Assembly: GCA_964626665.1 (NCBI GenBank)
Contig: CAZVGK010000036.1
Span: 1-27,735, forward strand
Length of the DNA stretch: 27,735 nt
Direction of reading: 5' to 3'
From: an uncultured Gemmatimonadota bacterium
GTDB taxonomy: Bacteria > SM23-81 > DAOVCL01
Both the position numbers and the translations under genes were made by a program. The notes beneath the pieces were generated by a model. The model had not been told where the DNA came from. It ran no database searches and worked only from the letters and a program-made list of their open reading frames with translations. Every line of letters starts with the position of its first letter. Position 1 is the stretch's first letter. Positions 15,894 to 20,516 of the stretch are shown piece by piece.

Positions 15894-15966
15894 AAGGAGT
15901 GGGGTCAGGCTGAAAAATAGAAATTATGTTTGATAGAGCCGATAAGATGTGGCACAATATTTAACG

Positions 15967-16095
15967 ATGGCAAGGAAACCGAGAATAGAATATCCTGGTG
16001 CGTTCTATCATGTGATAGCACGGGGGAATCGTAGGGAACCTATATTTGGAGATGCTCAGGATAGAGAAAGGTTCTTGAGCAAACTCTCAGGATAC
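15967..16095 (+). pseudogene. 5' fragment of a Y1/HUH (RAYT/IS200-like) transposase
   Basis: MARKPRIEYPGAFYHVIARGNRREPIFGDAQDRERFL is a typical N-terminus. Truncated before the HUH motif. Preceded by TGGGGTCAGG at 15900-15909. Confidence 0.85.
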
Positions 16096-16137
16096 TTGGT
16101 AGTTATTTCTATTTCTTGGCTCCATCTTAACATCAAA

Positions 16138-16350
16138 TTATGACGAGGCCCCTGTTGGGACCACTTGATACTCTATCCGCTGGGGCAATTCAACCCGTCG
16201 CGAAGCGTCAAGTATCTCCAGCGAAACCAGGTTCCCCGATGCATCATAATCAAGAATTATCCCCGGTTTGCCTTCATCGCTCTCCGCCACTGGCGTATCA
16301 GCAAAAATAACCGTCAACGTGTCTGTGTCGTTATCATAAACCACCTTCAT
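16138..16350 (-). CDS. DUF2283-family protein (putative antitoxin)
   Basis: MKVVYDNDTDTLTV...ESDE...ILDYDASGNLVSLEILDAS. Confidence 0.85.
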   Translation of the reverse strand: MKVVYDNDTDTLTVIFADTPVAESDEGKPGIILDYDASGNLVSLEILDASRRVELPQRIEYQVVPTGASS

Positions 16351-17612: not shown

Positions 17613-17667
17613 TCTTACTTCCCTTCTATCCATAAGCGTTCACATACTCTTTGTCTGAAATCATTTA

Positions 17668-17730
17668 GCCTAATAGCAAAGCTCAGCGAGGGCGGATTTA
17701 TCTGCCGTCCGTTGCAACGATTGGTTAGGT
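17668..17730 (-). other. attC site (core ATT instead of GTT)
   Basis: Minus strand ACCTAAC CAATCGTTGCAACGGACGGC...CGCTGAGCTTTGCT ATTAGGC. It overlaps the stop codon of the DUF2442 gene. Confidence 0.8.
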
Positions 17731-18141
17731 AGTCTTCTCCGCTGCAATTTCTTGTTCTATCCATTTTGGTAGCGGTTCACAAGTTGCTTTGGAGTAAAGA
17801 GTTTCAGGGGCTATGTCTACATCTTCTCCCCAGAAGAGTGTCCCCAAATCACGGTTGGCTTCAAACCGTTTGAAGTATTCCGGATTTTTGAGTTTCCCAA
17901 AGATACCACCTTTCTGTGTATAGCCCAATCTATTCATAAATTAGGGTGAGGATCTCCGATACTCATAGATTTTATGTTGTAGGGACAGGGCTTCAGCCCT
18001 GTCCGGGGAGAACGGACAGACATAAATGTCTGTCCCTACGGAATGACCAGATAACCTCTGGATAATGGGGCCGTCATTAGTTTATGAATAATGCAGGATA
18101 GGGGAGAAAATCGATTACGCCTGTCTTCCCATTCTCAAATT
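17725..18141 (-). pseudogene. DUF2442-family gene interrupted by a MITE and 5'-truncated
   Basis: Removing 17924-18097 plus one ATAG restores FENGKTGVIDFLPY-TQKGGIFGKLKNPEYF...GTLFWGEDVDIAPETLY. Confidence 0.85.
17924..18097. mobile_element. 174-bp MITE with 4-bp TSD (ATAG)
   Basis: TIRs CCCAATCTATTCATAAATTA and (reverse complement) CCTGCATTATTCATAAACTA. ATAG at 17920-17923 and 18098-18101. Internal GTAG...CTAC REP pair at 17978-18039. Confidence 0.9.
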
Positions 18142-18250
18142 TCGAGAAAGATCGAGGTTAAACCTTCAATTGACAATCTAAAGTTGCCTGGCACTTGCCC
18201 TGAGCTAAGAGTCTCTCACCATAATTGGTATTTAAAGGTTTGACCCCAAA

Positions 18251-18295
18251 TGTGCTTGCGTGTGAAGCGCTGTCGGCTCCAGCGAGCTGTTAGCG
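18251..18295 (-). other. Truncated attC (left half)
   Basis: CGCTAAC AGCTCGCTGGAGCCGAC... is complementary to the cassette core GTTAGCG at 18724-18730. It is cut off at a TGACCCC motif. Confidence 0.7.
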
Positions 18296-18299
18296 ATTA

Positions 18300-18683
18300 C
18301 TATTGTGAAGCCAAAAATCCTCCGATGACTGCTAAAATTGGTTTCAGTTTCTTTTGAATTGGATCTACCTCCACACCGAAATTTTCCAAGGCTGTAGCTC
18401 CTATCAGGAATAGTGAGCCTTTTCGCGCGAAAATCACCGGGCAAGGAATAATACCTTCTAGACCTTCAATCTGAAAATTGCAAAAGCCAAGCAGTCTCGT
18501 ATCTTTTCGTCCATCTGCAAGTATAAGATTCCGCTTAACGGATGGCTCCACACCTATCCTTTCAAGGTAATCCTCAGGAACAAAGGAATAAAGAGCTCCT
18601 GTATCCACCCAAAACTCCTCTTCAAAAAATTGATCAGGGTCTTGGCTGTTGGAGACTTTTACCTTTTTCTTGAACATGCCCAT
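18300..18683 (-). CDS. Clan AA (retropepsin-like) aspartyl protease, gene cassette
   Basis: VDTGA catalytic motif, LADG and LIGATALE. Confidence 0.88.
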   Translation of the reverse strand: MGMFKKKVKVSNSQDPDQFFEEEFWVDTGALYSFVPEDYLERIGVEPSVKRNLILADGRKDTRLLGFCNFQIEGLEGIIPCPVIFARKGSLFLIGATALENFGVEVDPIQKKLKPILAVIGGFLASQ

Positions 18684-18723
18684 ATTGTTGCTCCTCTTTA
18701 TTACAATATTTCCTTGTCATTAT

Positions 18724-18782
18724 CGCTAACGCTTGAGTTCAGCCGCCGCTGTAAAGCGGTCGGCTGGAATGAATGGTTAGGC
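18724..18782 (-). other. Canonical 59-bp attC site
   Basis: GCCTAAC CATTCATTCCAGCCGACCGC TTTACA GCGGCGGCTGAACTCAAGC GTTAGCG. Confidence 0.93.
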
Positions 18783-18821
18783 CAATCATGTATCAAGTCA
18801 AGACCTGATATTATGAAAAAG

Positions 18822-18850
18822 TTGCACATCTCGCATTTTGGTTGTATAAT
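18822..18850 (+). promoter_or_regulatory. sigma70 promoter for the IS transposase
   Basis: TTGCAC-17 bp-TATAAT. Confidence 0.7.
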
Positions 18851-18891
18851 GAGGGTTAGAGGAAGAAACCTAAAGCAGAGGGGGTGCAACT

Positions 18892-19935
18892 ATGTTATAT
18901 GTCGGTGTTGACTTTCATAAGAAGTATTCACACATCACTGAGATGGATGAAAGGGGTACCATCAGCCGACAATTCAGGTTATCTAATGAGCGGGAATCTC
19001 TCATCCAATATGTAGACTACCTTCCCTCACACAGCGGAGTGGCTGTAGAGGCGACTTATAATTGGTACTACTTCTATAAGCTGCTTGAAGGGCATGATAT
19101 TGATGTCTCCCTTGCTCATCCTGCTAAGACCAAAGCGATAGCCTCTGCCAGGATAATGAATGACAAGATCAGTTCAACTATACTGGCAGACCTTTTGCGC
19201 ACCAACTATCTGCCCACTGCCTATATCCCCCCCAGAGAGGTGAGAGATACCAGAGAGGTCCTTCGCTCCCGTGCCTTCCTGGTTGCCATGCGCACCCGGT
19301 TGAAGAACAGAGTCCATGCCATTCTCTCCAAGAATGGGCTGGAATCCCCATATACCGATATCTTTGGCAAAAAGAGCCTTAAGTGGCTTAAAGGGTTGGA
19401 ACTACGCCCCTGCTATCGCCAGCCCTTAGATAGCTACATCCGCCTGGCAGACTCCTTCGGCAAGGAGACAGAGCTGATCACCCAGACTATTCAGTCCTTG
19501 GCTATAGAAAGTCCTCAGGCCCGACTACTGGACACCCATCCGGGCATTAGTTACTACTCTGCCCTACTGATAGCCACAGAGATTGGCACTATTGATCGTT
19601 TCCCTACCCATGGACAACTCTGCTCTTATGCCGGGTTGGTGCCCTCGGTTCATTCCTCTGGGGGGAAGACTCGTCTGGGCTCTATCACCAAACAGGGCTC
19701 TAAGTGGTTAAGGTGGATACTGATTGAGTGTTCCTCCCATGCGGCAAGGGGCTCAGCACGGTATAAGTCCCTGTATGCCCGGGTAGCTTATAGGCATGGG
19801 AAGGCAGTGGCCAGAGTTGCAGTGGCCAGGAGCATGCTTAGGGTGATGTATTACATGCTCAAATATAACAGGCCGTTTCAAGAGCACCCCGTATTGGGCG
19901 GTCTCCAGTTAGCACCATGGGGTCATAACCTTTGA
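18892..19935 (+). CDS. IS110-family DEDD recombinase/transposase
   Basis: YVGVDFHK, VEAT, NDKIS, PGI, YAGLVP..HSSGG and ITKQGSKWLRW. Confidence 0.95.
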   Translation: MLYVGVDFHKKYSHITEMDERGTISRQFRLSNERESLIQYVDYLPSHSGVAVEATYNWYYFYKLLEGHDIDVSLAHPAKTKAIASARIMNDKISSTILADLLRTNYLPTAYIPPREVRDTREVLRSRAFLVAMRTRLKNRVHAILSKNGLESPYTDIFGKKSLKWLKGLELRPCYRQPLDSYIRLADSFGKETELITQTIQSLAIESPQARLLDTHPGISYYSALLIATEIGTIDRFPTHGQLCSYAGLVPSVHSSGGKTRLGSITKQGSKWLRWILIECSSHAARGSARYKSLYARVAYRHGKAVARVAVARSMLRVMYYMLKYNRPFQEHPVLGGLQLAPWGHNL

Positions 19936-20035
19936 GGTTCTCGGTTTGATTGCGCGGCTGGTGTCCAATAATATACTGTGCCTTGAGCACGTATAGGTGA
20001 CTGACAAGTAGTCCTTAAGACTCTATTGGACAGTT
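19905..20035 (+). ncRNA. Putative bridge/seek RNA of the IS1111 element
   Basis: Two stem-loops, each with two guide segments flanking a small hairpin. The guides match the target flanks and the element's own ends. Boundaries are approximate. Confidence 0.75.
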
Positions 20036-20171
20036 ATTTAATCTCAAAGAACAAAGGAGGGAAAACTTTACGGCACAGAAAAACTACCATAATACCCAGG
20101 GGTGAGTGGCAACTTTTTCATAGGTGACCCCATTATCCTTTCGATTCGCCGTTTCGCGCGCGGGTCATCAA

Positions 20172-20516
20172 TTACTTCCCCTCATCCAGGATACGGTCGA
20201 GTACCTCGATAAGTTCAGGAAGATTTGTCTGAACCGTATCCCATAGGATGTCGTAATCCACAAAGTCGTATCCGTGAATTAAGCGATGGCGCATGCCAAT
20301 GACTTCCGGCCAGGGGATTTGCGGATACTGCGCCTGTACGTCAGCGGGAACTTGACTTGCTGCCTCTCCCACCAATTCCACCAAGTGGGTCAGGGCCAGC
20401 CGGAGCATCTCGTTCGAATCCAGATCCTCACGTCTCTGCCCCTGGATTATATCGACGGCTCTGCGTGCATAGTCCCGCATGTGCTGCAACCGCACCTTCG
20501 GATCACGCCTGGACAT
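20172..20516 (-). CDS. HepT-like (DUF86/HEPN) ribonuclease toxin
   Basis: VGEAA...[15 protein letters not shown] contains the R-x4-H HEPN motif. Confidence 0.9.

Follow-up and report, generated by a model that had tools for sequence, protein, structure and literature searches.

An IS1111-group insertion sequence from an uncultured Gemmatimonadota bacterium with a predicted four-guide, two-loop RNA in its right end

A contig of 27,735 nucleotides from an uncultured Gemmatimonadota bacterium (GenBank assembly GCA_964626665.1, contig CAZVGK010000036.1; the whole stretch is called the window here) carries an insertion sequence (IS) of the IS1111 group at positions 18806-20124. In the right end of this element, from the last codons of its transposase gene onward, an earlier note made from the letters of the sequence had picked out four short words that correspond to the two flanks and the two ends of the element. 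This raises the question whether these words are the guides of an RNA that recognizes both target and donor DNA, and whether the element that carries them is intact. Based on the analysis reported here, the element is very probably an intact IS1111-group member of the RNA-guided IS110 family, with a right end encoding a two-loop RNA that carries four guides. RNA guidance, and its location in the right end of IS1111 elements, is already in print since 2024 (PMC11187229, PMC11208160). The window element is thus a new example of a known RNA-guided kind and does not change the known mechanism.

The element comprises 1319 bp when one copy of the TGA/TG core is counted. Its main parts are as follows.

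18806-20124, plus strand: whole IS, with TGA repeated at 18806-18808 and 20125-20127
18809-18812, plus strand: left 4-nt extension TATT, 5' of the left subterminal inverted repeat (sTIR)
18813-18825, plus strand: left sTIR ATGAAAAAGTTGC, a perfect 13/13 inverted repeat with 20109-20121
18892-19935, plus strand: transposase/recombinase gene, 347 amino acids (open reading frame; Pfam, NCBIfam and alignment to IS621)
20109-20121, plus strand: right sTIR GCAACTTTTTCAT, a perfect inverted repeat with 18813-18825
20122-20124, plus strand: right 3-nt extension AGG, 3' of the right sTIR

Direct reading bore out the proposal that excision of 18806-20124 joins CAAGACC to TGACCCCAT, and the alignment to sister copies in genomes of the same genus begins exactly at 18806. 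Three features of the IS1111 group are found: sTIRs within the range of 7-17 bp together with short terminal extensions (here 13 bp; TATT and AGG), a noncoding region (NCR) that is longer downstream of the gene (left end of 86 nt, 18806-18891; right end of 189 nt, 19936-20124), and insertion at a specific sequence without a long target duplication. The start of the left sTIR, ATGAAA, is kept in homologues.

The four words of the right end, numbered here in their 5' to 3' order, lie at the following positions.

19917-19925, plus strand: guide 1 (right target), ATGGGGTCA; Watson-Crick at 9 of 10 positions with the top strand of the right flank, TGACCCCAT (20125-20133)
19943-19949, plus strand: guide 2 (left target), GGTTTGA; in the sense of left flank plus core, for pairing with the bottom strand
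19968-19974, plus strand: guide 3, ATAATAT; complement of the IS left end A+TATT+AT (18808-18814)
19993-20000, plus strand: guide 4, ATAGGTGA; identical to the IS right end plus core (20120-20127)

Three of these words match exactly as first described: ATGGGGTCA is the reverse complement of 20125-20133, ATAATAT that of 18808-18814, and ATAGGTGA is identical to 20120-20127. The remaining word, GGTTTGA, lies where the earlier note had placed it, but differs from GACCTGA, the left flank plus core of this copy, forming three wobbles (G:T, U:G and U:G) against the bottom strand there.

To follow these words through evolution, homologues were assembled from 41 loci in species genomes of many phyla and from 80 metagenome loci. 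The post-stop region of 12 diverse elements was aligned with MAFFT (alignment A1), a four-helix structure, in which both loops have their own outer stem and hairpin, was drawn on A1, and a covariance model (R1) was built from the two. R1 gave 83 matches in 98 sources, and 85 when a second set of 98 was searched. The matches share the strand of the transposase gene and follow it directly; the exceptions are L116 (519-640) and L117 (1341-1462), two relatives with 46% identity in which the match is found upstream of the gene. R1 yields a single match in the window, which is also the single match in the whole 3.17-Mb genome and scores 110.9 bits. The predicted RNA is composed of the following parts.

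19905-19961, plus strand: predicted target-binding loop 1 (covariance-model alignment; stems covary)
19905-19910/19956-19961 and 19912-19915/19952-19955, plus strand: loop-1 outer stem (covariance model, RNAalifold)
19927-19931/19935-19939, plus strand: loop-1 inner hairpin AACCT/AGGTT (covariance model, RNAalifold)
19962-20006, plus strand: predicted donor-binding loop 2 (covariance-model alignment)
19962-19965/20003-20006, plus strand: loop-2 outer stem (fitted covariance-model alignment)
19978-19981/19987-19990, plus strand: loop-2 inner hairpin GTGC/GCAC (covariance model, RNAalifold)

The extent of loop 1 and its AACCT/AGGTT hairpin agree with what had been proposed for them. For loop 2, the GTGC/GCAC hairpin was likewise recovered, but an end at 20031 was wrong, as the closing stem ends at 20006. 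A compact predicted RNA of roughly 110 nt would carry all four guides. As anticipated, its 5' part overlaps the end of the transposase gene: because the stop codon TGA (19933-19935) sits inside the first hairpin, the 5' stem, guide 1 and half of that hairpin fall within the last 10 codons.

The structure is conserved by compensatory change. Among 71 distinct RNAs, in an alignment fitted to R1 on which these pairing figures rest, 92.6% of cells pair, compared with 75.8% after shuffling and 23-43% with partners slid by 1-3 columns, and changes on both sides are observed in 22 of the 23 stem pairs. On the unfitted A1 with its 12 sequences, RNAalifold recovers both hairpins and the loop-1 stem, but not the 4-bp stem that closes loop 2; the latter rests on the fitted alignment, in which 87% of its cells pair.

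For the comparison of guides with flanks, the ends of homologues were located by their own inverted repeat, independently of the guides. The inverted repeat was found in 58 of the 83 RNA-bearing loci of the first set. In the second set, both ends and enough flanking sequence were available for 52 of 85 loci; L113 and L115 were spurious and dropped, leaving 50 elements, and L019 stood outside this set throughout, from the R1 search to the end-finding and the permutation test. Each of the four guides fits its own partner best, as the covariation check suggested in the earlier note would have it: mean numbers of Watson-Crick pairs with the own partner and with those of other elements were 7.38 and 6.60 for guide 1, 7.78 and 6.11 for guide 2, 6.22 and 5.09 for guide 3, and 8.06 and 7.83 for guide 4. 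For each guide, no permutation out of 5000 came up to the own value, a figure that overstates independence because the homologues are related and mostly share one target.

Individual elements illustrate the covariation. Guide 1 changes together with the right flank in L028, L029, L048 and L086-L088. Changes on the target and donor sides include the following.

L028: right flank TGAGACCAT, guide 1 ATGGTCTC
L029: right flank TGAAATAAGT, guide 1 ACTTGTTTC (one G:T)
L048 (85-87% protein identity to the window element): right flank TGTCCCTA, guide 1 ATAGGGACA
Left extensions TGTT, TAAC, TAGG, TATC, TACT and TAGC: each with an exactly complementary guide 3
L028 and L029: right end CATAAG, guide 4 ATAAGTGA

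Guide 2 equals the own left flank over 8-9 nt in 11 of the 12 relatives viewed, the twelfth, L023, having one wobble and one mismatch. Guide-2 mismatches comprise 28 wobble-compatible transitions against 4 in the reverse direction, the bias to be expected if the RNA pairs with the bottom strand. For the target loop, covariation is seen both in the structure and between guides 1 and 2 and their flanks. For the donor loop, guide 3 changes in step with the left extension and guide 4 with the right one; guide 4 is nearly invariant, and donor-side support is weaker for it than for guide 3. Together, the covarying two-loop structure and the four guides support the reading of a bispecific guide RNA for target and donor, and "candidate programmable recombinase" seems a reasonable description of the system.

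The homologues also bear on the core, which had been taken to be TGA. TGA is indeed present at both ends of the window element, and it stands on both sides in 46 of the 50 resolved homologues, mostly at RRYY/TGA/CCCC. In the other four, the left copy is TGA and the right copy is TGT (L048) or TGC (L086-L088), and guide 1 of these elements pairs with the right-hand third base. Because the right third base varies and guide 1 follows it, the core common to donor and target is most likely TG, with the A belonging to the left end of the IS.

We infer that the RNA is produced and bound by the transposase, that a circular intermediate is formed, and that the window copy is active. In loop 1, ATGGGGTCA would pair with the top strand of the right flank, and GGTTTGA with the opposite, bottom strand on the left, over flank and core. 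In loop 2, ATAATAT and ATAGGTGA would pair with the donor, that is, the junction of right end and left end in the circle. By analogy with ISEc11 and IS621, the RNA-bound transposase would then synapse the circle junction with an RRYY-TG-(A)CCCC target, and strand exchange would take place at the TG core.

The 347-residue protein has both domains of such a transposase, matching PF01548 (E 6e-18) and PF02371 (E 1e-21) over their gathering scores. It scores 218.4 bits, with a cut-off of 140, against the NCBIfam equivalog NF033542, "IS110 family RNA-guided transposase". In a residue alignment to the IS621 transposase (8wt6; E 1.9e-9, of low identity and with only the C-terminal domain aligned well), D7 and D91 fall on the first and third acidic residues and S256-G257 on the nucleophile Ser-Gly. 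E53, within the motif VAVEAT, was placed on the second acidic residue via the family alignment. GLVPSVHSSG, which carries S256-G257, conforms to the motif GL-P----S(T)G as defined in PMC11187229. Of the DEDD tetrad, D7, E53 and D91 are present, and the fourth position is occupied by Ser.

Several observations weigh against the reading of an intact element with four working guides, in addition to the relatedness of the homologues mentioned above. Guide-1 mismatches comprise wobble and reverse transitions in equal number, 13 versus 13. The fold check proposed in the earlier note did not turn out in its favor: the single-sequence minimum free energy of 19890-20124 has z = -0.50 relative to shuffles, without a two-loop structure. 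A search of 18500-20500 against Rfam gave only a chance small nucleolar RNA match (E 0.56) on the other strand. In L019 (3484-3752, FCPU426), guide 1 does not match the right flank, since this flank adjoins another, incomplete copy. Immediately beyond the right end stands the 3' portion of loop 1 from another copy; the first bases of the flank are those that come after the left-target guide, which looks as though recombination had taken the DNA copy of the guide for its target. Further adverse points concern the window copy itself and the donor loop, and these are considered with the alternatives that they favor.

The alternative that holds up best is that of a well-built but dead or dormant copy, which through its insertion or through drift has a guide 2 no longer matching its flank, and which has stopped moving because its transposase lacks the fourth catalytic Asp as well. 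We consider this possible but doubtful. The window element is the sole full copy in the 3.17-Mb assembly and stands beside two decayed right-end relics (L002 and L003). Residue S94 of the transposase aligns with the fourth acidic residue, D105 of IS621, mutation of which abolished recombination (PMC11208158). Guide 2 pairs with its own left flank at 5 of 10 positions by Watson-Crick pairing, and at 8 of 10 with wobble. In addition, the contigs of four sequencing runs contain none that skips 18806-20124 and none that joins 20124 to 18806, a weak point given that contigs drop rare forms and are uninformative in this respect. By contrast, the reading frame is full length, the sTIRs match perfectly, and the RNA scores 110.9 bits with R1. 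The Ser is a trait of the clade and not a private lesion: NDK[IV]SS is found in 23 of 23 fully readable loci at 62-85% identity (down to L036), TDKIDS is kept by more distant loci, and among the 120 best homologue clusters Ser occupies the fourth position in 46 of 114 motif-bearing proteins. At least 18 of the 23 Ser-bearing loci are intact elements at different sites and in different phyla. Given the many intact carriers of the Ser at separate sites, D-E-D-S presumably supports activity in this clade.

The mismatched guide 2 can be approached in a similar manner. L046 has GACCTGA at the place of guide 2 in an otherwise near-identical RNA, and the three differences of the window guide from it all preserve wobble pairing; L048 and L067 have GGTCTGA. 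Three left junctions of sister copies (81-91% nucleotide identity; same-genus genomes G001 and G002) all read ...AAAGGTT/TGA and match GGTTTGA exactly. The genome contains 13 unoccupied GGTTTGACCCC sites, and the window holds one such site.

18235-18247, plus strand: unoccupied cognate target AAGGTT/TGACCCC, 560 bp left of the IS; guide 2 exact, guide 1 over 8 nt

Alone, this single window site is not above chance, with one or more sites in 31 of 100 shuffles. As GGTTTGA is exact at the sister-copy and unoccupied sites and needs wobble pairs at its own flank, the window element looks programmed for GGTT/TGA sites and appears to sit here in a near-cognate one. Another view is that of a degenerate guide: GGUU could wobble-pair with every RRYY variant (GACC, GATT, GGTC and GGCC) at TGACCCC repeat ends, which, if true, would widen the target range without loss of site specificity. 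The joint proposition that the clade works with a D-E-D-S metal site and that the GGUU left-target guide of the window element is deliberately degenerate is put forward tentatively, and we rate it as rather unlikely to hold in both parts. The clade-wide Ser at the fourth DEDD position constitutes a natural experiment on a residue reported to be essential in IS621, and the wobble-only left-target guide of the window copy one on guide tolerance.

A second alternative, which we judge improbable, would confine guiding to loop 1 in the manner of a short seekRNA; loop 2 would be structural or protein-binding, and its likeness to the IS ends would exist at the DNA level. A short seekRNA of 82 nt alone supported the movement of ISEc11 (PMC11187229). 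The near-invariant guide 4 owes its covariation to L028 and L029, which are countered by L073, where guide 4 is ATAAGTGA yet the right end is AGG. Left extensions TAAT and TAGT retain a guide 3 with AATA, so that the third base of the extension is unpaired, a mismatch tolerated in many elements, and the outer stem of loop 2 was missed by RNAalifold. Against confinement to loop 1, guide 3 follows six left extensions exactly with no permutation reaching its own score, the hairpin and stem of loop 2 covary, and loops complementary to donor and target were reported in the right ends of IS1111 elements (PMC11208160). Finally, it is exceedingly improbable that the word matches are due to chance or are left-over target duplications in the NCR without an RNA function, since despite an unremarkable single-sequence fold and the frequency of the AT-rich ATAATAT, 20000 mononucleotide shuffles of 19896-20108 contained the three exact words 15, 425 (ATAATAT) and 103 times but all together 0 times, and since stems show compensatory changes, G:U pairs are strand-specific, and guides covary with flanks across phyla.

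The four-guide RNA of the window element can be compared with several known systems. Siddiquee et al. (2024) described seekRNAs from the downstream NCR of IS1111 elements, in which the top-strand match lies 5' of the bottom-strand match (PMC11187229), and Durrant et al. (2024) predicted that 93% of IS1111 elements have a bridge RNA, located in the right end (PMC11208160). The window element shares with ISEc11, ISKpn4, ISPa11 and ISPst6 the presence of sTIRs, a transposase of 330-350 amino acids with GL-P----SG, a long downstream NCR, the order of the target guides (top-strand match first), and a site-specific repeated target (PMC11187229). Repeated sequences are the usual targets of this IS group: ISPa11 inserts into a repetitive extragenic palindrome (REP) and ISKpn4 into an attC site (PMC11187229). 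Unlike these four elements, the clade of the window element resides in uncultivated bacteria of many phyla, its target is RRYY/TGACCCC, and it has Ser at the fourth DEDD position. PMC11187229 describes target matches, to which the clade adds, via covariation, a second loop matching both ends of the IS.

IS621 likewise has a two-loop RNA with two guides in each loop (left for the bottom strand and right for the top strand), a short core shared by donor and target, and a Ser-Gly nucleophile loop, and its natural complex tolerates noncanonical G:T pairs (PMC11208160, PMC11208158). By contrast, the RNA of IS621 comes from the left end and precedes the gene, with the left guide first, whereas the RNA of the window element is in the right end with the order reversed, and the IS621 core is CT instead of the probable TG of the window element (PMC11208160, PMC11208158). 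A known IS1111-type element targets a fixed point in the terminal repeat of another repeated element, the same habit as observed here; in the present genome, however, the repeats are short and apparently noncoding, and no Tn3-family transposase was found. ISPpu9 with Ssr9 of Pseudomonas putida is similar as an IS110-family element in REPs with a small-RNA gene downstream of the transposase gene, and solo copies of its RNA region occur elsewhere in the genome (PMC12288879). The relics L002, L003 and L046 are comparable to these solo copies but, unlike them, are decayed or truncated. L002 (own genome, contig C2, approximately 52226-52360) has loop 1 and the right end with loop 2 deleted, L003 (own genome, contig C1, 81529-81584) consists of only the last ~56 nt, and L046 comprises the last ~330 nt of a related element with an 18-bp direct repeat of its right flank on both sides.

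No named IS relative was found, the best database names being only "IS110 family transposase", and the supplementary lists of predicted bridge RNAs and IS targets in the 2024 papers may already include members of the clade. The clade is an unnamed and environmentally widespread addition to the RNA-guided IS110/IS1111 recombinases. Its points of interest are the clean covariation of four guides, the Ser variant of the catalytic tetrad and the wobble-only left-target guide. In IS1111-type elements, donor recognition is less well documented than target recognition, and four easily read guides combined with natural covariation provide a usable start for tests of it.

The target motif is repeated in the genome. 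RRYYTGACCCC occurs 78 times compared with ~23 expected from composition. Most copies terminate short repeat families, conservation of which stops exactly after CCCC. The window contains the following copies.

15901-15911, minus strand: RRYYTGACCCC copy
18235-18247: RRYYTGACCCC copy, the unoccupied target given above
18800-18805 with 20125-20131: RRYYTGACCCC copy on the two sides of the IS

An inverted pair of copies bounds a noncoding segment of ~430 bp (contig C12), another family forms a tandem array (contig C18), and members of one family immediately precede truncated genes that are Y1-transposase-like, one of these genes being that at 15967-16140 of the window. The repeats may be of a REP-like nature or resemble miniature inverted-repeat transposable elements. 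An interpretation as Tn3-family terminal repeats was rejected for this genome (99.65% complete), in which PF01526 had no match. With respect to REPs and REP-associated tyrosine transposases (RAYTs), the genome has eight Y1_Tnp matches, and the motif is just upstream of only two of the nine Y1-type loci examined, the ninth being the truncated gene of the window. This gene of 58 codons (15967-16140) is located directly downstream of a repeat end and has no Pfam match; the N terminus of its product presumably resembles Y1 transposases of the IS200/RAYT type.

Imperfect hairpin repeats bounded by ...CTAA(C/T) and GTTAG(G/C) are present at 17660-17730, 18250-18300 and 18722-18785, and we take them to resemble integron attC sites. 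They stand between small toxin-antitoxin genes (DUF4258, ParE and HepT/MNT). The attC-like repeat at 18722-18785 was rejected as the target of the IS, since it stops ~20 nt short of the insertion point and has no counterpart beside other copies of the target. At 18728-18785, contig depth is raised, and contigs of other samples diverge on both sides. The region from 15.9 to 21.1 kb resembles a small cassette island with housekeeping genes on either side. It also contains a palindromic element at 17950-18045, with a summed contig depth of up to ~515 in metagenomes, which is found within the repeat-bounded segment of contig C12 as well and is probably a widespread REP-like repeat.

Two promoter candidates are associated with the IS.

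18823-18850, plus strand: promoter-like TGCACA-16-TATAAT upstream of the transposase gene, 10 of 12 consensus matches
20106-20111, plus strand: GTGGCA, possible -35 element, 4 of 6 to the -35 consensus, at the computed right-end/left-end junction

The region has 2 promoter-like sites and shuffles have a mean of 2.1; because the number of sites is not above that of shuffles, TGCACA-16-TATAAT remains a candidate only. GTGGCA, together with an extended -10 element TGnTATTAT formed by core and left end at a spacing of 16 nt, is a possible promoter that would be completed only in the circle. The right ends of many relatives (L007, L011, L036 and others) have a conserved outward TTGACA followed after ~17 nt by a TATA-rich hexamer; in the window, this motif is weak (20067-20095, TTTACG...TAATAC). 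An outward promoter in the right end may read across the circle junction.

The stretch is contained in contigs of 24 DNA sequencing runs, all listed as salt-marsh or vent metagenomes, with no RNA run among those listed, and the left junction is bridged by contigs (18756-19437) in runs X19 and X20. An orthologous empty site was not found in 41 related genomes, and the flanking HepT/MNT region gave only weak matches of 75% elsewhere. Hosts of the clade include Gemmatimonadota, WOR-3, FCPU426, Nitrospirota and Anaerolineales as well as archaeal metagenome-assembled genomes. A contig at 196-355x depth in runs X20 and X21 has, over 19825-20068, the right end of a related element with 14-20 differences and unchanged guides; these samples therefore also harbor a close relative of the IS, in an organism that is far more abundant.

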